NCBI GenBank assembly: GCA_015061285.1
Contig: SUWW01000004.1
Span: 341-64,340, forward strand
Direction of reading: 5' to 3'
Length of the DNA stretch: 64,000 nt
Origin: Bacteroidales bacterium
GTDB lineage: Bacteria; Bacteroidota; Bacteroidia; Bacteroidales; Marinilabiliaceae
This document shows, piece after piece, positions 20,269 to 43,650 of the stretch. Both the position numbers and the translations under genes were made by a program. The notes beneath the pieces are model-generated. The model was not told the origin of the DNA, made no database searches, and saw only the letters and a program-made list of their open reading frames with translations. Numbering within the stretch: position 1 is the first letter of the stretch; every line of letters begins with the position of its first letter.

Positions 20269-20320
20269 TTCTATAATTACGAATTATGAATTAAGAATTA
20301 CGAGGTTAGGCGTTCAGAAT
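20269..20320. repeat. heptamer-phased intergenic cassette
   Basis: TACGAAT TATGAAT TAAGAAT TACGAGG in phase, followed by GGCGTTCAG. Confidence 0.8.
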
Positions 20321-21292
20321 TTACAATTTACTACCTATGGTTAGCGTCTGACGAAAGCCGCTACTGCCCCATGCAATATCGTTTTTTTCTATTTGCCACG
20401 TGCCTGATTCTTCGCCATCGAGGGTGAGACGGACGGCATCGAGTTTATCTATCATCTCACCGCCGAAGACCGTCAGACTGCCACTCAGGCCGTCTTGCTT
20501 GAGTTTGGCAAGTTGCTCGTTGGCATACGTACGCATCTCGCTCTCGGTCATATTTATGACGTTGAAGGTGCGCAACTCGCCATCTTTATAGCCAACCTCA
20601 ACAGGCTTGATACTCTTGTTTTGGCGTTTACCCTTTTGTACGGTGCTGTTGTTCTTCACGCGCACAAGGAAACGCACCTCATCTGCTGGCTCGTATTTCA
20701 AATTTGCACGCGAAACTACGTTCCGGTGGTCGTCGAAATCGAATGTGCGAGCGTCCGATGGGCTCATGGCAAGACCGGCATAAAGTTTCGGTTCTGAGCC
20801 TGCACCTATGCGCATCATTGTTCGTATGCCTTGCTTCTTCAGCGCGTCGAGGAGTTCGCTCACTGTGTTGCACTCCACGCGATATGCACCAATGCTCTGC
20901 GTACCTTTTATTTCGGCATTGAGACCTTGGTCGGCAAGCAACTGGTTGAGTGTGGTCGATGTGTAGGCCTTTTTCTTGGCTTCGCGCGTCTGAAACGCAC
21001 ACATGGGGTCTTGCGCTTCAATCTGCATTGGCGTATTAGGCAGCACGCGGCGTACGTAGCCTACAAACGCAAGGTGGTTGCGGCCATCGTAGCCAAGCGA
21101 AATACGTATGGTGTCGCCACGGCGTATGGGATTCCTCTCAACATTGCGCCATCGAATGCGGCGTGGCAACGTCACGGTGGCGGTGTCGCAGAGCGTATCG
21201 GAGTGTTTTTGTATATTTACGCTCTCGGCATGGTCGAACCTTATGACGCCTTCTGTCGTAGAAATCTCTATATCGCACGTTAATCGGTACAT
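20321..21292 (-). CDS. putative tail/baseplate hub protein (gpD / late-control-D-like)
   Basis: N-terminal pattern RRGDTIRISLGYDGRNHLAFVGYV typical of gpD/XkdQ-type hub proteins. 323 aa. Confidence 0.4.
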   Translation of the reverse strand: MYRLTCDIEISTTEGVIRFDHAESVNIQKHSDTLCDTATVTLPRRIRWRNVERNPIRRGDTIRISLGYDGRNHLAFVGYVRRVLPNTPMQIEAQDPMCAFQTREAKKKAYTSTTLNQLLADQGLNAEIKGTQSIGAYRVECNTVSELLDALKKQGIRTMMRIGAGSEPKLYAGLAMSPSDARTFDFDDHRNVVSRANLKYEPADEVRFLVRVKNNSTVQKGKRQNKSIKPVEVGYKDGELRTFNVINMTESEMRTYANEQLAKLKQDGLSGSLTVFGGEMIDKLDAVRLTLDGEESGTWQIEKNDIAWGSSGFRQTLTIGSKL

Positions 21293-21295
21293 GTT

Positions 21296-21628
21296 ATGAA
21301 ACGCATTCTATTTATACTTATAGTCATTAGTGCACTTTGCTGCTCGATGAGGTCGGACGACTGCATATCCAAAGACGGATATTTTCGTGGGAAAAGGCTG
21401 TGCGGAAGGGTGAAGATTGTAGACAGTTTGGCCGACTTCAAAGTAAAAGTGGTTGGTAGTCTTGCCGACCTCCATGTGCGCGTCGTAGATGGCATTGCCA
21501 ATGACCCTGGTGAATGGCGGTTTGTGGAGAGCGGACAAGATTTTTCGGTATGTTTTGTCGAGAGTGGCGAAGACTTTACAATTCGATATGTGGAGAGCTT
21601 GCCTGGTGTCAATCGTCCATGCCGTTAA
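21296..21628 (+). CDS. small secreted lipoprotein with SLAD-x-[KH]V / ES-G-x-DF repeats, antisense to the tail operon
   Basis: Signal peptide MKRILFILIVISALCCS. Four short beta-hairpin-like repeats (SLADFKVKVV, SLADLHVRVV, SGQDFSVCFV, SGEDFTIRYV). Fills the gap between two minus-strand genes. Confidence 0.5.
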   Translation: MKRILFILIVISALCCSMRSDDCISKDGYFRGKRLCGRVKIVDSLADFKVKVVGSLADLHVRVVDGIANDPGEWRFVESGQDFSVCFVESGEDFTIRYVESLPGVNRPCR

Positions 21629-22242
21629 ATGGTTTGCACGACCTCTACTTCGTAGTCGTCATCACTCTTTAGTGTCATCACCACCTCCTGAGTATTTCCA
21701 TACGTAGCTTGATCAATTTCCATTTTTTCCACCACTACACGGTCTATGTCGAAGATGCGCAAGAATGCACTATCGATGTAGACTGCGCTGTTTTCACGGG
21801 CGAGTTCCGAGAGTTGTCGCATGGCATCGGCTGGGTACTCGTCCTCGGTATTTATGAGCGAAAACGTAACCTCAATTTCGTAGTCCTGAGCCGAAATCAT
21901 TTCCTTGACAGTCCCGTCGCGTCCAGCGATAGCTGTGGATACGATATTCTTTGCCATCGTCACTTTGCACACGGCGCTTGTTATAAGCACATCGTCGGCC
22001 GTCTCGGTGAGGCCAAGCGAGAGGTCGGTGTTGTAATACCTACCTAAGTAGCTATCGCGTGGCACAACGCCAACAGAACCATCGGCAGCGGTTTGAACGT
22101 CGCGCGCTTGACTATCGGTTTGCAGCGTATGCGTCTGCACAAGCCGCCCTTTGAAGTGGCTCGCTGCGCCCGTTGTCACCAAGCGAAGGCTCTGTCGCGT
22201 CTGTGGCAAATGCGGCAGGTTGGTTTGAATGTAGGCTTCCAC
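21625..22242 (-). CDS. hypothetical tail-module protein
   Basis: 205-aa ORF between the tube-like and hub-like genes. GTG start. Confidence 0.45.
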   Translation of the reverse strand: MEAYIQTNLPHLPQTRQSLRLVTTGAASHFKGRLVQTHTLQTDSQARDVQTAADGSVGVVPRDSYLGRYYNTDLSLGLTETADDVLITSAVCKVTMAKNIVSTAIAGRDGTVKEMISAQDYEIEVTFSLINTEDEYPADAMRQLSELARENSAVYIDSAFLRIFDIDRVVVEKMEIDQATYGNTQEVVMTLKSDDDYEVEVVQTI

Positions 22243-22349
22243 CCTATAACTAATAATTAAGAGGTAAGAAGTAAAAGAGCCGTGCGGCAGCTATATACAC
22301 TACGCTATACGCTTTACTCTTTTACTTTTTACTTTTCCATTTTTACTTA
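22243..22349. repeat. heptamer-phased intergenic cassette with central core
   Basis: TAATAAT TAAGAGG TAAGAAG TAAAAGA, then a core, then TTTACTT TTTACTT TTCCATT TTTACTT. AAGTAAAAGAG/CTCTTTTACTT are complementary. Confidence 0.8.
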
Positions 22350-22781
22350 TTATAGTTTTCCCCACTCTATGCGCGAGCAGACGAGCGGAATGTCCACCTC
22401 TTTGCTTGTGTCGCCTTCGCTCCAGTCTATCTCCACTTCGGAGAACTGGCAGTCGTGTATCACGTCGTGGACTATTTTGCCGCTTTCGTCTGGTATGTAG
22501 CTTACTTGTATGTCGAACACGCCAAGGTCTTGCAAACGTCCCGTGGTAGATGAACTGGCAAGCGAGCGCACTTCGTCGAGAAGCAGTTTGAGCGAAGCCT
22601 CACACGTGATGCGTCCTTTGCCGCGACCAACGGGATAGCGACCAGCGCCGTAAATATTGACAACATCTTGCTTGTCGGAGTATTTCACCCCGCGTATGCC
22701 CGTCATTGGAGCACCACCTACGAGCACCGTAATATCGGCCCACTCATATAAGTTGCCGTTGATTAGTGGAATTATGTTCAT
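22350..22781 (-). CDS. putative tail tube protein
   Basis: 143 aa, immediately after the sheath-like gene, beta-rich. Confidence 0.4.
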   Translation of the reverse strand: MNIIPLINGNLYEWADITVLVGGAPMTGIRGVKYSDKQDVVNIYGAGRYPVGRGKGRITCEASLKLLLDEVRSLASSSTTGRLQDLGVFDIQVSYIPDESGKIVHDVIHDCQFSEVEIDWSEGDTSKEVDIPLVCSRIEWGKL

Positions 22782-22884
22782 GGTAATTAAGAATTAACAA
22801 TTAAGAAGTAGAAATTATAAGAGCATGGCTTACGGCGGACGCGGCACGCCACGGCTCTCTTACTTTTTACTTTTTCATTTTTAC
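22782..22884. repeat. heptamer-phased cassette with GC-rich core; copy 1 of a repeat pair
   Basis: 22813-22863 is the exact reverse complement of 32252-32302 (51 nt). Flanks are AAGAATT/ACTTTTT heptamers. Confidence 0.9.
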
Positions 22885-23988
22885 TCAATCTTCCGTTGCT
22901 TTCACGAAGCCGATATTCACTACTGCTTTGCGCATGATGCCCACTGGCACGGCATGAATGGTGAACTCCACCGTGCTGGTGCCAAGAACGTCTTGTGCGG
23001 GATCTATCTGAACTTCCCAGCCACTCACCTCGCCAGCCTTCTCCATATCTTCCACAGCCTTTTGAGCTACCGTCTTGAGGTGCTGCAGTGTGTCGGCGCG
23101 GAGAGTGCCGTCGTTGTTGTAATAGATGGGGCGACCGAGTTCTGGCAATAAGTATGTACGCGTGCCGCGCACTGCCTTATCCATGGTGCGTTGTAGCTCA
23201 ATGGTGCAGTAGTCGCTCTGTGCGCTGTCCATATTATGGCTATCGCTGAAGTATACGCCCGACAGTCCTGGATAGGTACGTAGGTATATATAACGAGCTT
23301 CGTCGAGAGATTCGAGGATAACCTTGTAGACATCGGCGTAGGCTTGACCATCGGAGAAGTAGGGTTTGGTGAGCCCCGTTTCGCAGCGCTCCACCCATGC
23401 TATGCTTTCGTTGACGGCACGAGCCGAGAGGATGCCGATGAGTGTACCAATAGCAGGTGCAGAGACTTCGGAATCTCGACTGATGAGTACAGAGACGTTA
23501 GGCGCACTACCGGCGATGTCGGTGGGCAGAGCGTCGATGTCGGTAACCTTAGGTGCGATGACGATGGAGAGTGGCATCCACGCCTCGTCGAGGGCAGAGG
23601 CTTGAGCCTGAAGTGCAGTAATGGTGGCACGGGTTATCTCGACAGTGGTGTCGAGTATACCTATCTGACGGAGGTTGCCAGAGGCAGCACGTTGAAAGTC
23701 GCCCACGGCATGCATGTCGGCAGTGCGGACGGCAAAGCCAACCCAGAGCGATAGTCCAGGGTTGAGGCGTAGGGCTTCATGGACGTGGTAGCCATAGGTA
23801 TCGGAGGCGGCAAGGCCGAGCGCTTCGGCTGTCTTGGTAGACGAGCATGGCTGAAATGGGTTGGATTCGAATTCGTCGGGTATGTCGGACGCTTCGCTGA
23901 CGAGGAAGAGCAAACCACTTATGTGGTCCTGCCCTGCAAGGCTCTTGGCAATGTTGCCGTTTTCGCGGTTGATTACGAGTGTTTGCAT
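22885..23988 (-). CDS. putative contractile tail sheath protein
   Basis: 367 aa, precedes the tube-like gene. Resembles my recollection of DUF2586-type sheath proteins. Confidence 0.4.
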   Translation of the reverse strand: MQTLVINRENGNIAKSLAGQDHISGLLFLVSEASDIPDEFESNPFQPCSSTKTAEALGLAASDTYGYHVHEALRLNPGLSLWVGFAVRTADMHAVGDFQRAASGNLRQIGILDTTVEITRATITALQAQASALDEAWMPLSIVIAPKVTDIDALPTDIAGSAPNVSVLISRDSEVSAPAIGTLIGILSARAVNESIAWVERCETGLTKPYFSDGQAYADVYKVILESLDEARYIYLRTYPGLSGVYFSDSHNMDSAQSDYCTIELQRTMDKAVRGTRTYLLPELGRPIYYNNDGTLRADTLQHLKTVAQKAVEDMEKAGEVSGWEVQIDPAQDVLGTSTVEFTIHAVPVGIMRKAVVNIGFVKATED

Positions 23989-24106
23989 TTCTATAGTTAT
24001 GAGTTAAGAATTAAGAGTTACGAGACGTAGCGTACGGAGAAGGCGTTCAGACGGATTTCAAATCCGCTATTCCCTCGTCGGGGATTACAAATTCCCTACA
24101 ACAGAA
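23989..24106. repeat. heptamer-phased cassette with palindrome motif
   Basis: AGTTATG AGTTAAG AATTAAG AGTTACG in phase, then GGCGTTCAG-ACGGATTTCAAATCCGC at 24042-24067. Confidence 0.8.
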
Positions 24107-24598
24107 CTAATACTCAGGAATGTACTCTTCAAATATGTAGTATGCATTATTGCTGGCGGTGTCTTTGTACATATATGGTACTGTGCATCTGATAGTCTTC
24201 TGACCACCTGAGCAATCGAGGCGAATGAAGGACGCCTTCTCAAAAGGTCTACCTGATACCTGGTTTGCGTTATACCCAAAACGGTTATAGACGCCGTCTT
24301 CGGTTTCTACTCGCGATGCCCAAGTTGTTCGCACGCTTGAAACCGAAGGGAAGTAAATATCAACGTTATAGATGTTGTACATACTACTATAAGATGACGT
24401 CATTGAAATAGGTATGTATACATAAACCATATCCGTAGAGTTCATCTCTCGCGCCTGTGCCTTGAGATATGTTACCCCTTCACTTTCCGGTTCCGCCTCT
24501 TCCAGCGCCGTCGCACGTCCTTCCAAACCATCGAGGAGGTCGGAAAGGTGCTTTAGCTTGGTGCCTAAGTAGTAGCCTATATCATACGTAGTGCTCAT
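24107..24598 (-). CDS. hypothetical protein (possible distal fibre / receptor-binding part)
   Basis: 163-aa ORF after a fibre-like gene. Coiled-coil N-terminus, then beta-rich. Confidence 0.4.
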   Translation of the reverse strand: MSTTYDIGYYLGTKLKHLSDLLDGLEGRATALEEAEPESEGVTYLKAQAREMNSTDMVYVYIPISMTSSYSSMYNIYNVDIYFPSVSSVRTTWASRVETEDGVYNRFGYNANQVSGRPFEKASFIRLDCSGGQKTIRCTVPYMYKDTASNNAYYIFEEYIPEY

Positions 24599-24601
24599 TG
24601 G

Positions 24602-24712
24602 CTATTTTTCGCCTTCGAGGGCTGCTATGCGTGCATTCAGAGCCTCTATACGAGTGTTGAATTCGGCTATCACCGTAGCCAAGTATTGCGCCATCTGTTC
24701 AAGTGTATTCAT
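24602..24712 (-). CDS. 36-aa coiled-coil ORF (below the track cutoff)
   Basis: MNTLEQMAQYLATVIAEFNTRIEALNARIAALEGEK. Fills the gap between two fibre-module genes. Confidence 0.3.
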   Translation of the reverse strand: MNTLEQMAQYLATVIAEFNTRIEALNARIAALEGEK

Positions 24713-24723
24713 AGGTATTAGGC

Positions 24724-25200
24724 TTAGCTGTTGCTATTACTGTTACTACCGTATGCCGTCTCGAATGCAGAAACGAACTCTGCGTATGTGCCCAAACCAT
24801 CGAGCTTCGTTTTATCCTCGGCGGACATGAAGCCAGCGGTCGATTGCGTAGCGTTGCTGTGGGTGTGGTTGCCCGTAGCTGCCTGAAGTGCAGCAATAAG
24901 GTCGCCGTTGTCCTCTATGGCATCGGCAAGTTCCTTCAAGGTGTCCATTGCCGCTGGTGCACCATCGATAAGATCGGATATGGCTTGGTTGATGGCGGCG
25001 TATACCACGCCTTGGCCTGTGCCATTCGTCTCGGTGCCCATGCCGTTGGACGCAGAGCTATTGGTAGCATCTTGAATGCAAGTCTTGATGATAGCCTTGA
25101 GGTCGGCGTTGGAAATGGTAATCAGCCCATCTGCATAGTCTTTGATGCCTTGAAGCCTCCCGGCAATGTAGGTGCCGAGTTGTGTCATTAATGTGCTCAT
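24724..25200 (-). CDS. tail-fibre-like protein
   Basis: DGAPAAMDTLKELADAIEDNGD and HTHSNATQSTAGFMSAEDKTKLD motifs common in phage tail fibres. Confidence 0.55.
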   Translation of the reverse strand: MSTLMTQLGTYIAGRLQGIKDYADGLITISNADLKAIIKTCIQDATNSSASNGMGTETNGTGQGVVYAAINQAISDLIDGAPAAMDTLKELADAIEDNGDLIAALQAATGNHTHSNATQSTAGFMSAEDKTKLDGLGTYAEFVSAFETAYGSNSNSNS

Positions 25201-25298
25201 TTCTATAGTTACGAGTTATGAGTTAAGAGTTACGAGTTGAAAGTTCAGAGTTGAAAGTTCAGAGTTTAGAGTAATTGTCAATTTTCAATTCTCAATTG
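25201..25298. repeat. heptamer-phased intergenic cassette (14 consecutive phased units)
   Basis: AGTTACG AGTTATG AGTTAAG AGTTACG AGTTGAA AGTTCAG AGTTGAA AGTTCAG AGTTTAG AGTAATT GTCAATT TTCAATT CTCAATT GTCAATT. Confidence 0.9.
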
Positions 25299-25610
25299 TC
25301 AATTGTTTGTCGAGACATCCAGCATCTCGTTGCGCACAGGGCAGTCGCCAGCATGCGGGCATTCCTGAGCCTTCTGAATCACCTTAGTCAGCTGGCGCAC
25401 TGTGGTTCGAAGACCGTTTATCTCGCGTTTGAGCGGCTTTACGATATACTCTTCGTTGGTGCGCAAGATGCTGTCGGCATTTGTGGCTTTTATCTCTTGT
25501 AGTTCCTCTTCGGCTTTGCGCTTGGTTGTGCGCAATGTGAACAGTGAAGCTATCAGCCCCGACGAGAGCACCGCTTCACCAATGGTCCGTATTATATCGA
25601 TTGTGTCCAC
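25299..25610 (-). CDS. N-terminal TM plus coiled-coil protein
   Basis: TM segment AVLSSGLIASLF followed by a heptad-rich helix. GTG start. Same architecture as 36805-37170. Confidence 0.5.
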   Translation of the reverse strand: MDTIDIIRTIGEAVLSSGLIASLFTLRTTKRKAEEELQEIKATNADSILRTNEEYIVKPLKREINGLRTTVRQLTKVIQKAQECPHAGDCPVRNEMLDVSTNN

Positions 25611-25693
25611 TTCTTTAGTTACGAGTTATGAGTTACGAATTACGAGCGTCTATAATTACGAGTTATGCATTGTGCATTGTCAATTATCAACTA
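25611..25693. repeat. heptamer-phased intergenic cassette
   Basis: AGTTACG AGTTATG AGTTACG AATTACG ... TGCATTG TGCATTG TCAATTA TCAACTA TCAATTG. Confidence 0.85.
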
Positions 25694-26494
25694 TCAATTG
25701 TCCGCAAATGCTACCACGCCTTCGTTGTCGACGTTGATGCGAGAGCCACCAGCGCGCACGAGAGCCGAAACAACTTCGCCATAGTATAGCGGGTTGCGTT
25801 CGTCCACAAAGAGTTCGTCTCCACCAATGGCGTGGCTTACGCAGTCTTGTTGCCAAGCCATAGCATACACATTCGGATAAGTCTCCGAGATGGTTTGGCG
25901 TATGTATACGTCGAAGCCAAAGAGATTAGTAGCAGCACCAGGCACACTTGGCGGTGGCAGCACCACGCTTATTGGCTTACTGGTGATGGTGTCGAGTATC
26001 TCTATCCATCGACTTGGCTTCACGAGCAAGCAACGTCCAGTGCGCGGTAGGCGCTTTTGACTGAAGTAGGTGTCGGTAGCCACAAGAAGGTTGTCGGCCA
26101 TGCTGGCACCTGTAATCACGTTTGTTTGGCAACCGCCAAGCCAACGCGACACTATCTCTTCGGTGATGGCATCCTCGAGTCTGTCGCGCATCTGCGATAT
26201 AGTAGCAGCACGCGCGTTGGCGTTTTGCTCTATGCGGTCGCGGAAGGGAATAAGTATAGGCGATGTGGAAAACTCGCTGACAGGATAATGCACATCGATG
26301 TCGTCGCGACTGCCTGGCGTGGCAGGGAACGTGGCGCGGTCTTTAGCCACCTGCACCTCGCCCATAGCGCAGGGCACATGCACCTGACGCCCATCGATAA
26401 ACGCCGAATGGTCGAGCGAACGACGTATGAAGCTATTATTGTTGCGTAGCGGAGCAATTATCTCACTAAGCCATAGTTCTTTGTTTAGTGCCAC
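25694..26494 (-). CDS. putative major capsid protein, paralogue 1 (intact)
   Basis: 266 aa in the head module downstream of the protease-scaffold gene. Clear paralogue of 27506-28385. GTG start. Capsid assignment is positional. Confidence 0.4.
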   Translation of the reverse strand: MALNKELWLSEIIAPLRNNNSFIRRSLDHSAFIDGRQVHVPCAMGEVQVAKDRATFPATPGSRDDIDVHYPVSEFSTSPILIPFRDRIEQNANARAATISQMRDRLEDAITEEIVSRWLGGCQTNVITGASMADNLLVATDTYFSQKRLPRTGRCLLVKPSRWIEILDTITSKPISVVLPPPSVPGAATNLFGFDVYIRQTISETYPNVYAMAWQQDCVSHAIGGDELFVDERNPLYYGEVVSALVRAGGSRINVDNEGVVAFADN

Positions 26495-26593
26495 TTTGTT
26501 TAGTTACGAGTTTAGTGTTGAAAGTTTAGAGTTGAGAGTTGAAAGTTTAGAGTTTAGAGTATTTTTCAATTCTCAATTCTCAATTGTCAATTG
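26495..26593. repeat. heptamer-phased intergenic cassette
   Basis: GTGTTGA AAGTTTA GAGTTGA GAGTTGA AAGTTTA GAGTTTA GAGTATT TTTCAAT TCTCAAT TCTCAAT TGTCAAT TGTCAAT. Confidence 0.9.
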
Positions 26594-26740
26594 TCAATTC
26601 CCCTTCGCCCATTTATCAATCGTTGAGTATAGGCGGAAATTGCTTTCGCCCACTGTCGATAGCATGTCGCCTACGAAGGTTAGAAGTAAGCCGCCCACCC
26701 CTAAGGTTGCGGCGGCTATGAAGCGAACGACACCTCTCAT
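26594..26740 (-). CDS. 48-aa single-TM protein (holin/antiholin candidate)
   Basis: MRGVVRFIAAATLGVGGLLLTFVGDML... ATGA start/stop overlap with the upstream small ORF. Below the track cutoff. Confidence 0.35.
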   Translation of the reverse strand: MRGVVRFIAAATLGVGGLLLTFVGDMLSTVGESNFRLYSTIDKWAKGN

Positions 26741-26898: not shown

Positions 26899-27039
26899 CT
26901 TTATAATTATGAATTAAGAGTTACGAGTTGAAAGTTCAGAGTTGAAAGTTCAGAGTTGAAAGTTCAGAGTTGAAAGTTCAGAGTTGAGTGTAGTTAGATA
27001 TAGTATCGACACTACTCTTTACACTCTACTCACTACTCT
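26899..27039. repeat. heptamer-phased intergenic cassette containing a 14-mer tandem array
   Basis: AATTATG AATTAAG AGTTACG, then (GAGTTGAAAGTTCA)x4.5, then CACTACT CTTTACA CTCTACT CACTACT CTTTACT. Confidence 0.9.
26925..26988. repeat. tandem repeat, 14-bp unit GAGTTGAAAGTTCA x4 plus a partial copy
   Basis: Perfect copies at 26925, 26939, 26953 and 26967, with a partial copy at 26981-26988. Confidence 0.95.
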
Positions 27040-27447
27040 TTACTCCATTGTCAATTCTTTCACGTCGAAGCACGGGCAAGCTTTGTTGGCAAACTCGCTA
27101 TGTCCATGCACAGTGGCTCGAGGGAACTGAGTATGCAGTTCGCGCAAGAGGTTGCGCATAGCCACCTTTTGTGCCTCGGTGCGAGTGTCTTTAGGCGTCT
27201 TTCCATTAGAGGCCAAGCCGCCGACGTAGGCCACACCTATTGAATTGGCGTTGTGACCCGTGCAGTGTGCGCCCGCTATGGTAAGCGGACGACCTATGCT
27301 AACCGAGCCGTCAGGGTGTATGATGTAATGGTAGCCTACGTCGGAAAACCCACGTTTGCGGTGCCAACGGCGAAAGGTCTCGATAGAGAAATCGCGGCCC
27401 TCGCGCGTGGCTGTGCAGTGGATTATTATTTCGGTAATTGGTCTCAT
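27040..27447 (-). CDS. N-acetylmuramoyl-L-alanine amidase (Amidase_2/PGRP-type endolysin)
   Basis: IIHCTAT, GYHYIIHPDG, GAHCTGHNANSIGVAYVGG, HSEFANKACPCFD motifs. Confidence 0.85.
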   Translation of the reverse strand: MRPITEIIIHCTATREGRDFSIETFRRWHRKRGFSDVGYHYIIHPDGSVSIGRPLTIAGAHCTGHNANSIGVAYVGGLASNGKTPKDTRTEAQKVAMRNLLRELHTQFPRATVHGHSEFANKACPCFDVKELTME

Positions 27448-27505
27448 TGAAAAGAAAGTGTATAATGTGTATGATTTAAGTGTGAGCTAAATCAACAGTC
27501 ACAGT

Positions 27506-28385
27506 CTACTCACCTTCGCCGTCGGTCTCTTGAGTATCACCCTCGGTGGTGGTCTCTTGAGTATCACCCTCGGTGGTTGGTGCACTTGCAGAGATAGCAG
27601 CTATGCCCTTGCCATCTTGACGGATGGCAGCGCCACCAGCGCGAACGAGAGCCGAGAGGATGTCGCCGTAGTACGACGGATTCTTTTCGTCGACGAAGAG
27701 ATCCACGTTGCCAAGTGCGCGGCTTACGCACTCTTGTTGCCATGCCACAGCATACACATTGCTATTGGCAGGCGAAACAGACGAACGCAGATAGACGTCG
27801 AAGCCATAGATGGCACCCACGGTGCCTTTCTGAGCATCGGCAGAAGCAAGGAATGCTTGGCTCTGCTGCTGAGTGAGGTCTTCAAGCAGTTGGCTATATG
27901 CCTGTGCGTTGAGGAGAAGACAACGTCCTGTTTGCGGCACATCTTGAGAGTTGAAGGTGGTAGCAAGGTCGAGCACATCCGATGAGCCGAAGCTTGCAAT
28001 AGCCTTCATGGTAGGCGTTACGCCGTCTATCCAGGCGTCCACAATGTCGCCATGCACAGCATCGACAAGAGCTGCACGCATCTGAGCAATGACGCTTTGG
28101 CGTTTGTCGTACGAGAGTTCCACCTCTTCGCCATTGGTGATGTGAATAGGATCGGAAGTATACATCGTTGATGTTGTAGGTGAGGTCTGAGTCGGTTCTA
28201 CCGCCAGCCTGAGCAGGGAAAGTAGAGCGATTCTTGACGATAGAGGGGGCAGAACCAGCATTGGGGACGTGGACAGTCTTGTTGTTCACAAAGCCCGAGT
28301 GGTTGATAGCGCGTGCCGCAAAGGTGTTGTCGGCAAAAAGGGGTGCGACAATGTCGTTGAGCCAAATTTCTTTCTGTAAAGCCAT
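27506..28385 (-). pseudogene. capsid-like paralogue 2, reading frame broken near 28157-28163
   Basis: The N-terminal 76 aa (28385 downwards, MALQKEIWLNDIVAPL...) and the ORF 27506-28261 each align to parts of the 266-aa paralogue but lie in different frames. C-terminus carries a 27-bp tandem duplication (TTEGDTQE x2). Confidence 0.5.
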
Positions 28386-28483
28386 GTTTAGAATTAAGAA
28401 TTACGAATTAATAATTACGAGAGACGCGCCATCGGTATCTGCACTTCGCTATACCCACTACGCTCTGCTCTTTTACTTTTTAC
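28386..28483. repeat. heptamer-phased intergenic cassette with core
   Basis: AATTAAG AATTACG AATTAAT AATTACG, then a core, then TCTTTTA CTTTTTA CTTAC. Confidence 0.85.
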
Positions 28484-29425: not shown

Positions 29426-29527
29426 GGCAAAAATGAATTGCCTCTACACCCCCGCAAAATAGGTGAGCCAAATTGGCGCAACTATTTCCCGCAACGATTC
29501 ACGGGCGGCAACTTTGTGGCCGTTGGA

Positions 29528-29552
29528 GCGGATTTGCAAATCCGCCTGAACG
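29528..29552. promoter_or_regulatory. perfect 18-bp palindrome GCGGATTTGCAAATCCGC followed by CTGAACG in the divergent head/tail spacer
   Basis: Related copy in the same sense orientation upstream of the sheath gene (24042-24067). CTGAACGCC alone occurs upstream of 20268. Confidence 0.4.
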
Positions 29553-29584
29553 TAACTAATAACTCAAAACTTATAACTAAAGAA

Positions 29585-29893
29585 ATGACCGGACAACTCA
29601 CCGAGGCCGAAATCAACCGCCTCAAAGCTCAGTATGGTAAGATTTACGAAATCACAGCCGAAGACGATGGCGAACAATACGTTGCCTACTTCCGCCGCCC
29701 CGACATGGGCACACTCAGCGCCATGACCAAAATGGCCAAAACCGACGAGATAAAAGCTTCTCAAATACTGCTCGAAAACTGTTTCGTGGGTGGTGCCGAC
29801 ACCGTCAAAAGCGACACCTCGCTCTTCATGGCTACTGTGGGCGAACTCTCGAAGATTGTAGGCGCAGCCAAGGCTACAATAAAAAACGTCTGA
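29585..29893 (+). CDS. tail assembly chaperone (short, zero-frame product)
   Basis: 102-aa acidic ORF immediately upstream of the tape measure gene. ATG at 29585 preferred over the track start 29438. Confidence 0.6.
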   Translation: MTGQLTEAEINRLKAQYGKIYEITAEDDGEQYVAYFRRPDMGTLSAMTKMAKTDEIKASQILLENCFVGGADTVKSDTSLFMATVGELSKIVGAAKATIKNV

Positions 29894-32226: not shown

Positions 32227-32334
32227 AAAAGTAGTAAGTAGAAAGTAATAAGTAAGAGAGCCGTGGCGTGCCGCGTCCGCCGTAAGCCATGCTCTTATAA
32301 TTCTTACTTCTTAATTATAAATTCTTAATTCTCA
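32227..32334. repeat. heptamer-phased cassette with GC-rich core; copy 2 of the repeat pair
   Basis: 32252-32302 is identical to the reverse complement of 22813-22863. Flanks are nnAAGTA and AATTCTT heptamers. Confidence 0.9.
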
Positions 32335-32625: not shown

Positions 32626-32708
32626 TTCCGAATTCCCAATTACGAGTTCCGAGTAACCATCGTCCATCAGCGACTAACACTCGTAACTAATAACTTATAA
32701 CTAAAGAC
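32626..32708. repeat. heptamer-phased intergenic cassette
   Basis: Ends in AACTAAT AACTTAT AACTAAAGAC before the GTG start, the same sense-strand pattern as the other cassettes. Confidence 0.7.
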
Positions 32709-34828: not shown

Positions 34829-35371
34829 TTAGTTGAATTCTGATTTTGCGTCGAATGATGGGCAGGCTTTGTTGGCGAAGTCACGATGACCATAGACTGG
34901 AATATTGCCGTATGCCTGACGGAGTTCTTTGATAAGTTGACGAAGCGAGGCTTTCTGTGTATCAGTTCGATTGTCTTGCGGTGTCTTGCCGTCCTCAGCC
35001 ACACCGCCACAATACGATATGCCGATGGAGTTCGAGTTCTGCCCAACGCAATGCGCCCCGACTTTCGACAGCGGTCTGCCTTCATGCACCGAACCGTCTC
35101 TATAAATGACGTAGTGATAGCCAATGCAGTCGAACCCACGCTCACGATGCCACTTGTCAATCAGTTCGACTGTGCAGGCTTGCGAGGGACGAGTGGCGGT
35201 GCAGTGAACGATAATCTTATTGATAGTCCGCCCCACGAGAGCGAGTTTTGTCTTGTCAACGAGGTTCATGATTTGAGTCTTGTATTTGCGGTAGATGATT
35301 ATGCCAGCAGCAGTCGTAGCTATGCCAGCCACAAGAAGAATTGTCCACTTGCGGTTATATGTTGATTCCAT
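34829..35371 (-). CDS. N-acetylmuramoyl-L-alanine amidase (Amidase_2) with N-terminal TM/signal-anchor
   Basis: TM WTILLVAGIATTAAGIIIY, then IIVHCTAT, GYHYVIYRDG, GAHCVGQNSNSIGISYCGG, HRDFANKACPSFD. Paralogue of 27040-27447. Confidence 0.85.
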   Translation of the reverse strand: MESTYNRKWTILLVAGIATTAAGIIIYRKYKTQIMNLVDKTKLALVGRTINKIIVHCTATRPSQACTVELIDKWHRERGFDCIGYHYVIYRDGSVHEGRPLSKVGAHCVGQNSNSIGISYCGGVAEDGKTPQDNRTDTQKASLRQLIKELRQAYGNIPVYGHRDFANKACPSFDAKSEFN

Positions 35372-36438: not shown

Positions 36439-36459
36439 CGGTAATATTTTCGGATTAAT

Positions 36460-37170: not shown

Positions 37171-37189
37171 GGTGGTTCGGGATTAGTGG

Positions 37190-37582: not shown

Positions 37583-37617
37583 AAATAGTTAAGAGTTAAA
37601 AGTTTAGAGTTAAGAGT
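37583..37617. repeat. heptamer-phased intergenic cassette
   Basis: Sense strand reads TAAACTC TTAACTC TAAACTT TTAACTC TTAACTA TTT ATG. Confidence 0.8.
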
Positions 37618-38142
37618 TTACTGAACTGGAGAGTTGGTCTGTGAATACCCAGTGAGGTTGCCTGCCTTGATGACGGCATTGACGAGATCCTTGTAGTCGG
37701 TCTCGCTCATGCACGAAATCTTGTAGTTGACGTAGGGCACAGACTGGTTGACAGCTAACGACCACTGATTGTAGCCCGTTAAGCCATTGAGCCAAGAGTT
37801 GAGTCCCGATAGGCTGTTGTTGGCCGTCGTACCTGTCGTTGTAGAGCTGTAAGAGACCGCCGTAGCAGTCTTCGTGGCATTGTTGGAGACGTTGCTCATG
37901 GCGAACATCTTAGCTGCGGGGATGCACTTGACAGATGTCTTCCAATACTTAGCATCGAAAACGCCATCGATGAACGTCTGGAACGTTTTGGCGTAGGATG
38001 AGTTGTTGAATCCGTTATTGGTATTTATGTTTACAGACGAACTGCTGTACTTTGTCGCTACCATACCAAGTACAGATGCGGCTAAGTAGTAGGTGTTCAG
38101 GTCGTTGCCCTGAGTGGTGAAGGAGAGCGCGTATTTACTCAT
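37618..38142 (-). CDS. hypothetical Ser/Thr/Asn-rich structural protein
   Basis: 174-aa ORF in the fibre region. Confidence 0.5.
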   Translation of the reverse strand: MSKYALSFTTQGNDLNTYYLAASVLGMVATKYSSSSVNINTNNGFNNSSYAKTFQTFIDGVFDAKYWKTSVKCIPAAKMFAMSNVSNNATKTATAVSYSSTTTGTTANNSLSGLNSWLNGLTGYNQWSLAVNQSVPYVNYKISCMSETDYKDLVNAVIKAGNLTGYSQTNSPVQ

Positions 38143-38662
38143 GATTGATGTAGTTATTGAAGGTTAGCGTTGAGGCCGTCTGGTTCACGAAGTTGCCGAA
38201 GGTCATGGTGTTCTTGCTCGTTTCTATGAAGTTTGAGAATGTCAATTGATTGCTATTCGTATTCACAAAGTCTTTGAACGTCAATGTATTGCCGTTCGCA
38301 TCCACGAAGTCTTTGAACGTCAGTATGTCTCCTTTCGCATCTACAAAATCACCGAACTCAATGGTATCGGCAATGACAATAGGAGTACCGCACTCGACGA
38401 AATCACTGAACTCAATAATATCGGCAATAACAACAGGACTACTGCACTCTACGAAATCACTGAACTCAATGGTGTCAGCAATGACAACAGGACTATCACA
38501 CTCGACGAAATCCTCGAAAGTCAGTTTATCCTTGTCGTTGCACTTGCATTTGTACAATTCAAGCAGCCGCTCACACTCCCTGAGACGAGCCTCCATGAGC
38601 ATGAGTTTGCGAGCGATGAAGTCGCCCTGTTTCTGCATTATGTTGGAATCGCTCGTAATCAT
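38135..38662 (-). CDS. tandem-repeat protein with about ten [TE]F-x-[DN]F[VI] units
   Basis: N-terminal coiled coil, then repeats FVECDSPVVIADTIEFSD x3 and FVDANGNTLTFKD-type units x6. Confidence 0.55.
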   Translation of the reverse strand: MITSDSNIMQKQGDFIARKLMLMEARLRECERLLELYKCKCNDKDKLTFEDFVECDSPVVIADTIEFSDFVECSSPVVIADIIEFSDFVECGTPIVIADTIEFGDFVDAKGDILTFKDFVDANGNTLTFKDFVNTNSNQLTFSNFIETSKNTMTFGNFVNQTASTLTFNNYINHE

Positions 38663-39782: not shown

Positions 39783-39784
39783 GG

Positions 39785-40918: not shown

Positions 40919-41298
40919 CGTTTCTGTTGAATGATTGGAGTTACACGAATGAAGTCGAGGCGGAACGGCGTGATCTTGTCCTCTGCTGAATACGCTTTAG
41001 CGCCTGTCGTCTTGATGATGAGATAGTTGCGAAACATGCGGTTTGTTGTCGTGCCAAGCGTCGCAATCTCCTGTTCTGTCGCCAAAAGGCTATCAGTTGG
41101 CGAGATTAGGCACACTTCGTTCAAATCCTCCACGAGGTTTGGTGCGGAAGCTCGTATGCCCGTAAGTATGTAGCTATCGTTCATCAGCTGCATTATCTGC
41201 AATGGCGATGTGACTGTGATGCTTGTTGGTGTGACAACCGTCTTGAAGCCCATGCGCTCGAAGCGTTGCTGCTCTATGTATGCGAGTCTACTTATCAT
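40915..41298 (-). CDS. hypothetical protein
   Basis: 127-aa ORF with 4-nt overlaps to its neighbours. Confidence 0.5.
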   Translation of the reverse strand: MISRLAYIEQQRFERMGFKTVVTPTSITVTSPLQIMQLMNDSYILTGIRASAPNLVEDLNEVCLISPTDSLLATEQEIATLGTTTNRMFRNYLIIKTTGAKAYSAEDKITPFRLDFIRVTPIIQQKR

Positions 41299-41821
41299 AC
41301 TCCATGTAGAATTTGGCAGTGTAGCCGTTCGTACTCACGTTCTTGGGTTTGCCGTCCGCTGTCAGACTGAAGTAGTCGAGAGCCTCGCACGTATCGTCAA
41401 GCGACAGTCGCTCATCTTCACGCTCGAAAGGTTCAAACAGCTTCTCTTCAATGATGATGCGTAGTGCCGAACCATTCTCCACGTCGATGCCACCTTGCGG
41501 CAGCATCGTGCGAACCATATCTATAGTGCCCTTATTGGCCTTGCTCAATACGCAGAGAGGCGTTGAATCCGCAACCACATGCGTATTGTTGAGCGTAGCC
41601 GACAGAGAGCCAATCTGCACTGAGCGATCGCCGTAAGCGGTCTGTTTCAAATCTTTCTTTGCAGCGCAAATGACCTTCTGCAAAACACTCGTGGTCGGCA
41701 GCGTGACGTTGCTCCAGAAGGCTCTGACGTGGCGCACTTGCGATGGCAGAATGACTTCCACCTGATGTACCGCGCCCCATTTCTTATGGTCTGGAATCTC
41801 TATCGTAGCCACATAAATCAT
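41288..41821 (-). CDS. hypothetical protein
   Basis: 177-aa ORF, overlapping its neighbours. Confidence 0.5.
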   Translation of the reverse strand: MIYVATIEIPDHKKWGAVHQVEVILPSQVRHVRAFWSNVTLPTTSVLQKVICAAKKDLKQTAYGDRSVQIGSLSATLNNTHVVADSTPLCVLSKANKGTIDMVRTMLPQGGIDVENGSALRIIIEEKLFEPFEREDERLSLDDTCEALDYFSLTADGKPKNVSTNGYTAKFYMEYDK

Positions 41822-42222
41822 CGCTCAAGCACGAAATAGAGGTTGAACATCTGGTCGGTCTTGGTGTTGTTCGTTAGGATCATCTCGAACTCGCTCGACT
41901 TGGCTGGTATCTCATCTTTAGAGAAATCGTAAATCGTCTGCCCGAGCGACACCTCGCCTTTGAACGCGATGAGCGAGAGGTCGAAGCCGTCTGGCAGTAT
42001 CTCGTTCTGCGCAATCTTTAGCGAGCATGTCACGCCCGACAAATCGGTGCTTGCCGACTGTGGCACGACGAACACGCCCACGCATTTCGTAAAGTCCTGG
42101 CGCAGCTGGTCCGTCAGCGACACAATGTTGCCGCCCGCCGTGACTTTATTCGTCTCCGAGTCGGTACTCTCGATTATGCCCTTGGCTATTATGTTCCTGA
42201 ATATCTGAAAGCTTCTCTTCAT
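41818..42222 (-). CDS. hypothetical beta-rich protein
   Basis: 134-aa ORF. Confidence 0.5.
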   Translation of the reverse strand: MKRSFQIFRNIIAKGIIESTDSETNKVTAGGNIVSLTDQLRQDFTKCVGVFVVPQSASTDLSGVTCSLKIAQNEILPDGFDLSLIAFKGEVSLGQTIYDFSKDEIPAKSSEFEMILTNNTKTDQMFNLYFVLER

Positions 42223-42234
42223 GGTTGTTTGTGG

Positions 42235-43596
42235 TTAGACTATTTTCTTGTAACCGAACAGGAAGAACAGCGTCCAGTCGGCGAACATCACTGGGTGTTT
42301 GGTGATAGCTATATCAGCCCCTCGCACGTCTTTGCGTCTGTTGACATTGACGGATATGGATCGTGTCACGCCGTCCTCGACATCAAATGTCATCAGCGCA
42401 TCGCGCATGGGTATGCGGTCGTTTGCTGTATAGAGTTCGAGGTCGGTATCAGGCTCTGTTATCTCACGTCCAGCCCCCGACAGTGTGAAGGTCAGCGGAT
42501 AGTCGCAATGCAGCCAAATGTCGTCGGCATTCGACTTGGGCGAGTGGATGCGCGTGAGGTTATAGACGAACATCATCTTCGGCTCATGGTCGAAGCGGAA
42601 GATGTTCTCCTGGCGAAAAAACTCACTGTTGTAGAGTGCCTTTTGTTGCACCCACGAGGCCATCCTGAAGAGGTCTTCCTTGCGGACCTCCGTTCCCTCG
42701 ATGCTCTTGTCGGTGCAGTAGTCGGCGGTCGTGTAAACAGCATCGTCAATACGTACCGAAAACGCCGCGCTGTCGGCAATCTTCACCACCGCACCATTCC
42801 CGCCTAAGTACATCAGATTATCGGGTGATGCCTTGGGCGTTCCTTCGATGATGAGTGATGGAAAGCCGCCCTCGGTGAAGACTGTTCGTGCCGTCAACGA
42901 GAAGAGTTTCGTGAACTTCGAGAGGCACGCCAAAGGTTCTTGCGGTGACGGTGCTTTGACTCCGTTTCGAGTATATTGCGCCGTTCTCAGAAGCACCGTC
43001 GTCTCGCCAGAAATGGTGTGTTTCCACTCCACGCCGTGCTGGTCGGCAATGAACCGCTCCCACAGTCGAGCAACGTCCGCTTTGGTCAACTCCATTGATG
43101 ATGAGCTTGCGGAAGAATTGCCGTCTCCGCTTGTCGTTGTCGTCAATGCCGCCTTGTCGAAAGCCTCCTGCAACGCCTTGCGAATGACGCTGATATTGGC
43201 AGTCTTGCGCAGCGTAATACGTTTAGTCTCAAAGAAATCAAAGCCGAGCGACTCGTCAACTCCCTCGTCCGAGCAGACCATGATGACGTTGAAATCACCG
43301 AGTGCCGAGGACTGTATTCTTATCTCCGACAGGTTGCAGTTGACGTTGACCTCAAGCGCCACTTTCTGCCAAGCAAATCTGTCTGGCGAGTATGGCGACG
43401 AGGTGCAGAACGGCAGAACGAGCAAGTCTCTGCATATCTGCTTGCCATCTATAGATATGGAGATCGTGTCGGGCGCAGTCTTGAAGCGGAAGAGTCCGTC
43501 GTTCTTATTCTCGAAGTAGAGATGGCGTATACTCTTCGCACCAAGTGGCGTAGCACTAATGGTCAGCTCGGACGATATGGGAATGACGTGAAACAC
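42235..43596 (-). CDS. hypothetical two-domain protein
   Basis: 453-aa ORF. GTG start. Ser/Thr linker TTTTSGDGNSSASSSS between the domains. Confidence 0.5.
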   Translation of the reverse strand: MFHVIPISSELTISATPLGAKSIRHLYFENKNDGLFRFKTAPDTISISIDGKQICRDLLVLPFCTSSPYSPDRFAWQKVALEVNVNCNLSEIRIQSSALGDFNVIMVCSDEGVDESLGFDFFETKRITLRKTANISVIRKALQEAFDKAALTTTTSGDGNSSASSSSMELTKADVARLWERFIADQHGVEWKHTISGETTVLLRTAQYTRNGVKAPSPQEPLACLSKFTKLFSLTARTVFTEGGFPSLIIEGTPKASPDNLMYLGGNGAVVKIADSAAFSVRIDDAVYTTADYCTDKSIEGTEVRKEDLFRMASWVQQKALYNSEFFRQENIFRFDHEPKMMFVYNLTRIHSPKSNADDIWLHCDYPLTFTLSGAGREITEPDTDLELYTANDRIPMRDALMTFDVEDGVTRSISVNVNRRKDVRGADIAITKHPVMFADWTLFFLFGYKKIV

Positions 43597-43650
43597 GGGT
43601 CAATTGAAAATTGAGAATTGAAAATTGACAGTTAAATCAGGCTATGCCTG
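43597..43650. repeat. heptamer-phased intergenic cassette
   Basis: Sense strand reads TAACTGT CAATTTT CAATTCT CAATTTT CAATTGA CCC GTG. Confidence 0.8.

Follow-up and report, generated by a model that had tools for sequence, protein, structure and literature searches.

We analysed a 64,000-nucleotide stretch of DNA from a Bacteroidales bacterium (Marinilabiliaceae; assembly GCA_015061285.1, contig SUWW01000004.1, positions 341 to 64,340 of the forward strand), which we call the window and number from its first letter. It carries a myovirus-like prophage or phage-like element, recognised by Pfam and PHROG scans of the window's proteins. The spacers between the genes of this element are compound heptanucleotide tandem-repeat arrays, of the kind known as long simple sequence repeats (LSSRs), short tandemly repeated repetitive (STRR) sequences and TAACTGA repeats. 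The reading that we prefer, at roughly even confidence, is that these heptamer arrays were generated by slippage, were copied among gene junctions, and are either tolerated there or used as intercistronic leaders that do not depend on a Shine-Dalgarno (SD) sequence. That the cassettes, as we call these spacers, are transcribed, that they act as leader and insulator, and that slippage and gene conversion produced them, we infer from the sequence.

Periodicity, layout and polarity of the spacers

The identity of each spacer with itself at a lag of 7 nt was tested against 1000 dinucleotide-preserving shuffles. It was found that all 13 spacers that a preliminary description had listed as built from 7-nt units had excess lag-7 identity (z from 3.4 to 8.4), so the periodicity claimed there was significant in each of them. 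The pooled lag-7 identity was 0.583 versus a shuffle mean of 0.274 (standard deviation 0.014, maximum 0.320; pooled z about 22), with harmonics at lags 14, 21 and 28, and Tandem Repeats Finder (TRF) independently reported arrays of period 7, 14 and 21 at the spacer positions. The spacers thus consist of short units arranged head to tail beyond what composition would give, as do long simple sequence repeats and heptanucleotide tandem repeats. All 13 sit exactly between open reading frames (ORFs) and are AT-rich (23–42% GC), and the flanking ORFs look, by eye, clearly more GC-rich; a coding role was rejected, the cassettes being non-coding. Total cassette lengths are not multiples of 7, and no constraint on length modulo 7 was found.

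A fourteenth cassette, absent from the earlier list, was found at 29521–29584, ahead of a plus-strand gene that starts at 29585. The density is therefore 14 cassettes in about 23 kb (20.3–43.7 kb), with 12 of them in 12.4 kb (20.3–32.7 kb). In a sliding lag-7 scan of all 64 kb, arrays were confined to 20.2–43.7 kb; neither the 19 kb that precede the element nor the final 19 kb of the window contained any. The non-element DNA of the window contained a single TRF array, of 2.6 units at 7779–7796, which shows that the class is present outside the element at low density.

The units had been described as running in unbroken phase. This is correct within arrays, but not across the GC-rich cores of the cassettes at 22243, 22782, 23989, 28386, 32227 and 32626. 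From stop to start, the phase is literally unbroken only in 25201–25305 and nearly so in 26495–26610, whereas 23989–24106 is periodic only in the approximately 35 nt adjoining the start. The spacer at 25201–25305, which had served as the example, was well chosen: its 15 units keep one phase from a CAATTGA that overlaps the upstream stop, so that the upstream ORF takes its stop from the first unit, to a TATAGAA that abuts ATG.

On the sense strand, a cassette has up to three parts, namely stop-proximal purine units, a core and a start-proximal leader (Table 1). The stop-proximal units are purine-rich, contain a stop triplet (AATTGAn, AAGTAAn, GAGTAGn) and sometimes provide the stop of the upstream gene itself. 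A core is often present, around which the flanking arrays form imperfect inverted repeats. The start-proximal units are rich in pyrimidines and A, poor in G (TCNTAAC/T, CTTAATT or nTCAATT), and in fixed register to the start, with a degenerate last unit (TATAGAA, TAAAGAA, TATAAAG, TAAAGAC or TCTAAAC) abutting ATG or GTG. The bases T, A and A were found at −11, −10 and −9 in 9–10 of the 14 cassettes, and at −18, −17 and −16 in 9–11.

Table 1. Heptanucleotide cassettes of the element and a mini-array in host DNA. Layouts are given on the sense strand, ending at the start codon where one is shown.
Position	Strand	Context	Periodicity	Layout
7779–7796	+	host DNA; provides stop of host gene 6243–7784	TRF	mini-array, AATTGAA x2.6
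20269–20320	−	upstream of 161-aa gene 19783–20268	lag-7 identity 0.60, z 4.9; TRF period 7	...TCGTAAT TCTTAAT TCATAAT TCGTAAT TATAGAA, then GTG
22243–22349	−	upstream of DUF6046 baseplate gene	lag-7 identity 0.55, z 5.8	palindromic; (AAGTAAA)n arm, core, CTTTTAC/TTCTTAC arm, TTATAGG, then GTG
22782–22884	−	between sheath and tube genes	z 6.2	AAAAAGT-type arm, GC-rich core (GAGAGCCGTGGCGTGCCGCGTCCGCCGTAAGCCATGCTCTT), CTTAATT-type units, then ATG
23989–24106	−	upstream of sheath gene	lag-7 identity 0.39, z 3.4	GC-rich small hairpins, TCGTAAC TCTTAAT TCTTAAC TCATAAC TATAGAA, then ATG
25201–25305	−	upstream of 158-aa gene	15 units; lag-7 identity 0.69, z 8.3	(CAATTGA)x4–5, TCTGAAC/TTTCAAC x2, TCGTAAC TCTTAAC TCATAAC TCGTAAC TATAGAA, then ATG
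25611–25693	−	upstream of 103-aa gene	lag-7 identity 0.62, z 7.0	AATTG/ACAATGC units, TCGTAAT TCGTAAC TCATAAC TCGTAAC TAAAGAA, then GTG
26495–26610	−	upstream of intact capsid-like paralogue	lag-7 identity 0.71, z 7.9; TRF 21-nt super-period	(AATTGAn)x5, (CTAAACT/TTCAACT)n, CGTAACT AAACAAA, then GTG
26899–27039	−	after amidase gene	z 8.4	GAGTAGn arm and hairpin, (TCTGAACTTTCAAC)x4.5 perfect, TCGTAAC TCTTAAT TCATAAT TATAAAG, then ATG
28386–28483	−	upstream of capsid-like gene	lag-7 identity 0.55, z 6.1	GTAAAAA units, GC-rich core, TCGTAAT TATTAAT TCGTAAT TCTTAAT TCTAAAC, then ATG
29521–29584	+	ahead of gene 29585–29893 (= L011 4096–4404)	TRF period 7 at 29553–29580	GC hairpin (CGTTGGAGCGGATTTG/CAAATCCGCCTGAACG, inverted repeat), TAACTAA TAACTCA AAACTTA TAACTAA AGAA, then ATG
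32227–32334	+	after tape-measure gene	z 7.2	plus-strand copy of 22782–22884 cassette: AAGTAnn arm, GC core identical to 22782–22884, CTTAATT-type units, then ATG
32626–32708	+		lag-7 identity 0.59, z 6.6	(A/G)TTCCGA-type units and core; end TCGTAAC TAATAAC TTATAAC TAAAGAC, then GTG
37583–37617	−		lag-7 identity 0.79, z 4.2; TRF periods 7 and 14	short; ACTCTTA ACTCTAA ACTTTTA ACTCTTA ACTATTT, then ATG
43597–43650	−		z 3.4	small GC hairpin, (nTCAATT)x4, GACCC, GVG-type start (GTG)

The orientation of the cassettes had been said to track gene direction on both DNA strands, and this was borne out: 14 of 14 are in sense orientation relative to their genes, and the three plus-strand cassettes (29521, 32227 and 32626) have a layout that is the reverse complement of the minus-strand ones. 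The clearest case is a 101-nt stretch at 22785–22885 on the minus strand that is 90% reverse-complementary to 32230–32330 on the plus strand, each copy being sense to its own gene and the similarity stopping at the stop and start codons. The start-proximal 45 nt form a family of 8 copies among the cassettes. Similarity was also found between the 26495–26610 cassette and that at 25193–25304 (77% identical in register) and between 29521–29584 and 32679–32707 (86% identical), and within 26899–27039 a 14-nt unit is repeated 4.5 times with a 100% match (TRF, 26925–26987). Units of the AATTGAn type occur in both orientations in the element, after the stop at 25272–25305 and 26566–26593 and, as nTCAATT, before the start at 43601–43634; the cassette at 43597–43650 is accordingly 94% reverse-complementary to the first of these segments and 93% to the second.

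Reports of intergenic heptanucleotide repeats go back to about 1990 in cyanobacteria, with later ones from Beggiatoaceae and a few Bacteroidetes; the STRR heptanucleotide repeats of cyanobacteria were reportedly described by Mazel and colleagues in 1990. The preliminary description knew of no described phage regulatory element of such a form, but start-adjacent intergenic heptamer direct repeats have already been described as a kind (MacGregor 2015, PMC4679880). In that study, abundant intergenic direct repeats of TAACTGA were found in marine Beggiatoaceae, many Cyanobacteria and five Bacteroidetes, mostly in forward orientation a few nucleotides from start codons; they are absent in close relatives, vary by insertions and deletions in 7-nt steps, and occur in mixed heptamer assemblages. 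According to the summary given there of Mrazek et al. (2007), heptanucleotides are the commonest class of long simple sequence repeat (SSR) in prokaryotes, possibly owing to how much DNA the polymerase holds when it slips. In Nostoc PCC 7120, contiguous heptamer repeats upstream of recF and recO, which lie within 30–100 nt of the start or overlap it, had modest effects on a reporter when deleted, and an unidentified binding partner was proposed (bioRxiv 10.1101/2022.06.06.494920).

The cassettes share with the TAACTGA repeats a tandem 7-nt unit that is almost always intergenic, and the unit TAACTnn is near-equal to the TAACTCG, TAACTCA and TAACTCT found here. The repeats of 'Maribeggiatoa' and Flexibacter are mostly forward and a few nucleotides from a start codon that lacks an SD sequence, and likewise about 10 of the 14 cassettes end in TAAY-containing units followed by a TAWAGAA-like unit and ATG or GTG, with no GGAG or AGGA. 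In contrast, the window has only 3 occurrences of exact TAACTGA, none of them tandem, the units here being TAACTCN, TAATTCN and TAACTAA, and the cassettes are composite (purine array, palindromic core, leader) and concentrated in a prophage. With LSSRs and STRR sequences they have in common the predominance of heptanucleotide units, an intergenic location, a phylogenetically sporadic occurrence and a proposed origin by slippage, whereas STRR units are CCCCAGT and similar, with neither a start-codon phase nor a prophage concentration described. The Nostoc arrays differ in organism and in their units (TTTTGAA and GAC(C/T)AAT). A description of such arrays in Bacteroidales phages was not found in the literature, the coverage of which was incomplete, so this is not proof of absence. 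The kind is thus a known one; this case stands out for the density of arrays in a prophage, for a layout that is both composite and palindromic, for the existence of cassette-free relatives and for the occurrence of the same arrays in a culturable species.

Leader composition and candidate expression signals

In the last 40 nt before the starts, G amounted to 6.7%, versus 16% upstream of the window's other genes. The G fraction was 0.20 in the stop-proximal part of the cassettes of this element versus 0.05 in the start-proximal part (p = 0.0015), and the corresponding values in the cassettes of an independent relative, locus L013, were 0.27 and 0.07 (p = 0.004). No ATG is present on the sense strand of these last 40 nt, versus 4 if the cassettes are reversed, and no SD-like GGAG or AGGA was found in the leaders of the 14 cassettes. 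The sense strand has 82 TAA triplets and the antisense strand 35, and 12 of the 14 cassettes carry stops in every reading frame because the length of the stop-bearing unit, 7, equals 1 modulo 3. The predicted unpaired probability from −20 to +10 was 0.57 for the native cassettes. Reversal lowered it to 0.41, with a decrease in 13 of 14 cassettes (Wilcoxon p = 0.0012), and shuffling to 0.50 (p = 0.025). The leaders of the window's ordinary genes are likewise devoid of SD sequences, rich in A, C and T, and TAAC-containing.

The ribosomes of Bacteroidia ignore the SD sequence, and initiation is tuned by low structure, by upstream adenines (at −3, −6, −12 and −13) and by AUG depletion (Baez et al. 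2019, PMC6847099). The cassette leaders agree only in part with the initiation region so defined: low G, absence of SD and AUG, and high predicted accessibility are all present, and A is common at −1, −2, −4, −6, −9 and −10 and occupies −6 in 9 of 14, but the adenines at −3, −12 and −13 are mostly missing. Among the four roles suggested in the preliminary description, a leader suited to SD-poor Bacteroidota is thus the best fit, on the grounds of low G, absence of AUG and SD, the fixed TAA phase and predicted openness.

In such a role, the cassettes would be transcribed within a polycistronic late mRNA, and their layout would be set by translation in an SD-blind host. Three successive stop-bearing units would close all three frames after the upstream gene, the optional palindromic core would form a hairpin with a possible part in protecting the upstream 3′ end or in transcriptional attenuation, and the G-poor, AUG-free and largely unpaired leader would provide each downstream gene with a separate, open region for initiation. 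Because an insertion of about 100 nt breaks stop-start coupling, the downstream genes would have to initiate from these leaders, which should therefore be at least sufficient for initiation.

The late genes of phage T7 are separated by long intercistronic hairpins (RNase III sites), and 3′ stabiliser hairpins occur in polycistronic mRNAs. The cassettes resemble the T7 arrangement in having long imperfect hairpins between late phage genes, those of T7 lying within polycistronic RNA, but only about 5 of 14 fold significantly, and T7 is not known to have heptamer periodicity. The sense RNA of 22243–22349, in which an inverted-repeat search found 34-nt arms with 79% complementarity (22246–22350), had a minimum free energy of −36.1 kcal/mol (z −5.7), that of 26899–27039 had −35.3 kcal/mol (z −3.9), and the sense strand of 22782–22884 folded with a z of −3.1. 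The AATTGA/TCAACT cassettes fold well on the antisense strand only, because the pairing needs G-U (antisense z −3.4 versus sense z −0.8 at 25201–25305; −3.0 versus −1.0 at 26495).

Hairpin cores might also point to termination, and each cassette could be a late promoter or a terminator-promoter unit that makes each structural gene its own transcription unit. The cassettes do precede most late structural genes, the hairpin cores at 22243, 22782 and 32227 have A-rich 5′ and T-rich 3′ flanks, a GC stem followed by T6 stands ahead of the heptamer leader in the relative L259, and TTGACA occurs inside AATTGAC arrays. However, the −7 motif TAnnTTTG of the Bacteroidetes sigma-A promoter, which is paired with TTTG at −33, is present in 0 of 14 cassettes on either strand. 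Between 19 and 38.5 kb, neither the 27 sigma-70-like matches (19.7 ± 5.1 in shuffles) nor the 25 terminator-like matches (19.3 ± 5.0) exceeded expectation, and a single terminator-like match, at 22292–22278 in 22243–22349, fell within any of the 14 cassettes. In addition, the relatives presumably express the same genes from abutting ORFs that have no cassettes, and the same arrays stand inside housekeeping operons, such as the 25-nt spacer of fcl-gmd described below. Both the late-promoter and the terminator-promoter candidates of the preliminary description thus appear very improbable. A search of both strands of the 64 kb against Rfam gave no match at the gathering score.

Unit sequences that are otherwise unrelated all keep a period of exactly 7, with super-periods of 14 and 21 nt. 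This would be expected of lattices bound by a protein that covers 7 nt of RNA or of single- or double-stranded DNA and thereby co-regulates the late genes. Candidates would be a cold-shock-domain protein, ribosomal protein S1, or a regulator encoded by phage or host; S1, cold-shock protein (Csp) or CsrA-like binders have been proposed, as proposals only, for the TAACTGA repeats (PMC4679880), and a heptamer-binding partner for the Nostoc arrays (10.1101/2022.06.06.494920). However, the units are highly diverse (AATTGAn, AAGTAAA, GAGTAGA, TCNTAAC, CTNATTC, CAGAGAC), and it is therefore hard to reconcile them with a single sequence-specific binder. Neither a repeat-binding nor a repeat-mobilising candidate was found in PHROG and Pfam scans of the element's genes, nor a lattice candidate among the window proteins scanned, and the relatives carry the same genes without arrays. 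We consider a lattice of this sort decidedly unlikely.

A broader proposition, which we also hold to be unlikely, is that heptamer arrays are a dedicated and transferable intercistronic expression element of non-SD organisms, in which the 7-nt register would be read by a ribosome-associated single-strand binder (S1 or a cold-shock-domain protein) that loads or reloads ribosomes at the following start codon, and which Bacteroidales phages would have spread and amplified as a means of setting the stoichiometry of late proteins. If true, this would account as well for the TAACTGA and STRR repeats found in Beggiatoaceae and Cyanobacteria. DNA curvature was discounted on geometrical grounds only: three units of 7 bp make up two turns of the helix, and bends would therefore cancel.

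Relatives of the element and arrays elsewhere

Relatives of the element were found through the sheath protein together with its genomic contexts and are given as L-numbered loci; one of them, L260, was found through the DNA pattern at the tube start, as the sole relative with the sheath-tube junction pattern in a single metagenome scan. Other assemblies with an identical sheath protein were 100% identical. Six relatives have no heptamer arrays, and their genes abut or nearly abut: L007 (sheath identity 87%), L014 (85%), L015 (79%), L257 (77%), L256 (70%) and L017 (68%). The sheath-tube junction of L007 reads TAATACGCA and then ATG, so that it spans 9 nt versus 103 nt in the window, and L260 has the same 9-nt junction without a cassette. 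The shorter, repeat-free spacers of L007, L014, L015, L017, L256, L257 and L260 are a further likeness to the TAACTGA repeats, of which the same has been reported. No target-site duplication was visible on comparison of the L007 junction with that of the window.

Two relatives have cassettes of their own. In L013 (sheath identity 81%), cassettes are present at most junctions but differ in sequence from the window's at the same junction; arms of the GAGTAGA/TCTACTC and CAGAGAC types grade into CGTAACT CTTAACT ... TAGAA leaders before ATG that are like those of the window, and all are in sense orientation, including those at two divergent junctions. In L259 (79%), GC hairpins are followed by (CTNATTC)n leaders. 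Both relatives thus share with the window the layout of a hairpin followed by a G-poor heptamer leader. Because cassettes are present in the window but not in six relatives, and differ in L013 and L259, they are lineage-specific additions. A conserved phage regulatory element, as which they might have been taken, is at odds with six relatives (sheath identity 68–87%) without cassettes and two with other sequences. From these comparisons, the cassettes were gained or turned over repeatedly and are dispensable for the phage genes themselves. They mark lineage-specific variation in gut prophages. As the local order of the structural genes is shared between the window, with its 14 cassettes, and six relatives that have none, an unusually clean natural comparison is at hand.

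Under our preferred reading, units would arise by slippage in 7-nt steps, as suggested by the perfect 14-mer repeated 4.5 times, by gradients between neighbouring units in L013 and by the 7-nt insertions and deletions reported in the literature. Whole cassettes, from stop to start, would then be copied or homogenised among junctions by recombination between similar arrays, which would account for the 101-nt opposite-strand pair at 90% and the 8-copy family of the start-proximal 45 nt. In this lineage, cassettes would have filled at least 14 junctions that span few bases in most relatives.

The wider distribution was examined by database searches. The 24-kb element had no megablast match among 50,697 phage records, the GC-core cassette had none in a distant blastn, and a search of IMG/VR for the GC core of the duplicated cassette found nothing. 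In IMG/VR, (TAACTnn)x4 occurred in more than 120 stretches, 125 of 126 arrays lying outside ORFs, and (AATTGAn)x4 in more than 119 stretches (median GC 0.51). Several contigs carry 7–11 of the latter arrays in 5–13 kb (L181, L236, L152, L206 and L227). Complementary TCAATT-like units were found downstream of 25 and upstream of 3 of 125 AATTGA arrays, and therefore the arrangement of purine arm, core and pyrimidine arm is a general one. In L227, a palindromic (AGTTTTT)n/(AAAAACT)n cassette occurs twice (3291–3415 and 5668–5785), with its loop inverted and in opposite orientations relative to the genes, and between the reverse-oriented copy and the start lies a separate SD-like GGAG, which suggests that cassette and ribosome-binding site are separable in SD-using hosts.

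A cassette query of PLSDB returned 26 records, including 12 from Parabacteroides, 3 from Bacteroides, 1 from Phocaeicola, four from cyanobacteria, and records from Serratia and Phaeobacter; the cyanobacterial replicons, matched by BLAST with a window cassette, belong to Kovacikia, Nostoc, Sphaerospermopsis and Annamia. Records labelled as plasmids of Parabacteroides distasonis TSDC17.2-1.1 (NZ_OY7257xx–NZ_OY7258xx) carry rpmF, era, der, pstABC, metK, gcvP and rsmG, and are evidently chromosome fragments. In their curated annotation, arrays exactly fill the stop-to-start gaps of housekeeping operons. The 25-nt fcl-gmd spacer ends in ...AATTGAAAATTAGAGAA followed by ATG, the hyp-metK spacer in (nTCAATT)x4 TAAAACG followed by ATG; DUF3298-rsmG, DUF3332-GH2 and cysE-THUMP each have a palindromic cassette, and the pairs DNA-binding protein-glucosaminidase and YihY-MATE each have an AATTGAn array. 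The density is low in this species, with 0 arrays in 50 kb of one record and 1–2 BLAST places per listed record. Since arrays occur in P. distasonis housekeeping operons, the class is not phage-specific, yet it is highly concentrated in the prophage studied here.

The arrays can also mislead start-codon annotation, as with P. distasonis rsmG. At 1501–1610 of L261 (P. distasonis NZ_OY725751.1), the annotated start of rsmG lies upstream of an (nTCAATT) array, so that the annotated N-terminus reads through the repeat, and the conserved N-terminus of RsmG starts just after it. The stop-free strand of the array has probably led to misannotation of this start.

The evidence that separates a leader role from a neutral one is thin. 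The cassettes may instead be neutral or selfish simple-sequence expansions with no role of their own, produced by replication slippage that favours 7-nt units and harmless only between a stop and a start, a possibility that we rate below our preferred reading but well above the other alternatives. Polarity would then result from the copying of one composite cassette, together with purifying selection against structure or spurious AUGs near starts. Six relatives without cassettes, the different sequence at the same junction in L013, the perfect recent duplications, the lack of a universal orientation rule in IMG/VR and the location of 125 of 126 (TAACTnn)x4 arrays outside ORFs are all in keeping with this, as is the attribution to polymerase slippage of heptanucleotides as the commonest long prokaryotic SSR (Mrazek 2007, as summarised in PMC4679880). 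It is harder to account in this way for 14 of 14 sense orientations, a fixed start phase and a conserved TAWAGAA end that recur in L013, for cassettes that replace the whole spacer exactly from stop to start, and for 14 cassettes in about 23 kb against none by the lag-7 scan in the 19-kb stretches at either end of the window. In addition, the structural genes would have to be translated from these leaders once coupling was broken, which would make the leaders functionally sufficient.

Several observations weigh against a leader role. Close relatives do without cassettes, and therefore any benefit would be dispensable. With respect to the Flavobacterium johnsoniae optimum, only 6 of 14 leaders have A at −3, where 5 have G, and T or C predominates at −12 and −13. 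The better antisense than sense folding of the AATTGA/TCAACT cassettes is explained by a leader model only as avoidance of mRNA structure. The 14 cassettes are paralogues, and so the polarity and phase statistics do not represent 14 independent events. Beyond the element, P. distasonis start codons are abutted by both AATTGA and TCAATT orientations, and in IMG/VR the (TAACTnn)x4 arrays next to an ORF start were 19 forward versus 16 reverse, the (AATTGAn)x4 arrays next to starts were in both orientations (29 versus 48), and a crude SD-poor subset was likewise mixed. A universal polarity rule is accordingly not borne out in IMG/VR, but this is weak negative evidence because ORF-based gene calls are rough and greedy calls unreliable. 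As the same arrays are found in P. distasonis, a culturable gut species, the choice between junk, leader and lattice is directly testable.

Shared arrays could also serve as recombination linkers, short homologies that permit module swaps between co-infecting phages with ORFs kept intact. The gene order from amidase to sheath varies among the relatives, and the capsid-like paralogue at 25694–26494 and its small neighbours, which are flanked by similar cassettes here, are absent at this position in L007; a rearrangement role for long arrays was suggested by MacGregor (PMC4679880). This is purely circumstantial, arrays are also present in stable housekeeping operons, and we hold such linkers to be highly improbable.

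The cassettes were also compared with repetitive extragenic palindromic (REP) sequences and bacterial interspersed mosaic elements (BIMEs), with miniature inverted-repeat transposable elements (MITEs) and with the attC sites of integrons (Vibrio cholerae repeats, VCRs). All are dispersed imperfect palindromes of about 50–140 nt that follow stops between co-oriented genes, have strand-dependent hairpin potential and occur as copies common to several junctions. The arms of the cassettes are tandem heptamers, however, which is not a feature of REP or attC. For REP/BIME and MITE, the comparison rests on palindromy in about 5 cassettes and on shared copies, in the 64 kb of genome viewed. Integron attC sites were rejected, since neither R″ (RYYYAAC) nor R′ (GTTRRRY) core sites were seen in a direct reading of the cassette ends, the genes on either side are phage structural genes in conserved synteny that also occur without cassettes, and no integrase was found among the proteins scanned. 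Among the proteins of the element and window scanned with Pfam and PHROG, there was likewise no transposase and no REP-associated tyrosine transposase (RAYT).

Other features of the element and its surroundings

The sheath gene of the element, of the DUF2586 family, lies at 22885–23988, and tube, baseplate-hub and tape-measure proteins, two Amidase_2 proteins and capsid-like proteins are also encoded. The capsid-like gene at 27506–28385 (minus strand), an orthologue of L007 6367–7170 (59% amino acid identity), is split in two overlapping ORFs in different frames (27894–28385 and 27506–28261), with the break near GATGTATACTTCC. A frameshift mutation, an assembly error and a programmed event are all possible, and an independent ENA contig (L011) shows the identical split. 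At the 3′ end of this gene, a perfect 27-nt tandem duplication (GGTCTCTTGAGTATCACCCTCGGTGGT x2, 27524–27577) encodes a repeated acidic nonapeptide. The intact, divergent paralogue at 25694–26494 (minus strand) has 38–40% amino acid identity to the first copy and to L007, and very similar AATTGA/TCAACT cassettes stand on both sides of it, between which it may have been acquired as a module.

The host genes left of about 19.3 kb are DUF5107/TPR, MFS transporter, AraC and SusC-like genes. A defence cluster similar to bacteriophage exclusion (BREX) systems adjoins the element at 48877–63453 on the minus strand, the cluster itself beginning at about 50.5 kb. It comprises a Z1-domain protein (50539–53463), a PglZ-domain protein (54088–55548), an N6/N4 DNA methylase (57049–59769) and a DUF6079 AAA protein (59776–63453), and a weak match to Toll/interleukin-1 receptor (TIR)-like domains lies beside these genes at 48877–49785.

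The ORF at 38135–38662, which has no Pfam or PHROG assignment, contains in-frame tandem repeats within 38237–38512, of 54 nt (x3.1, 84% match) and 39 nt (x2.2–2.4). The two Amidase_2 (N-acetylmuramoyl-L-alanine amidase) genes are separate, at 27040–27447 and 34829–35371. A small gene of the Septknot family (21296–21628, plus strand) is wedged on the opposite strand between two baseplate genes, an arrangement that is kept in the relatives L011, L013, L014, L015 and L257.

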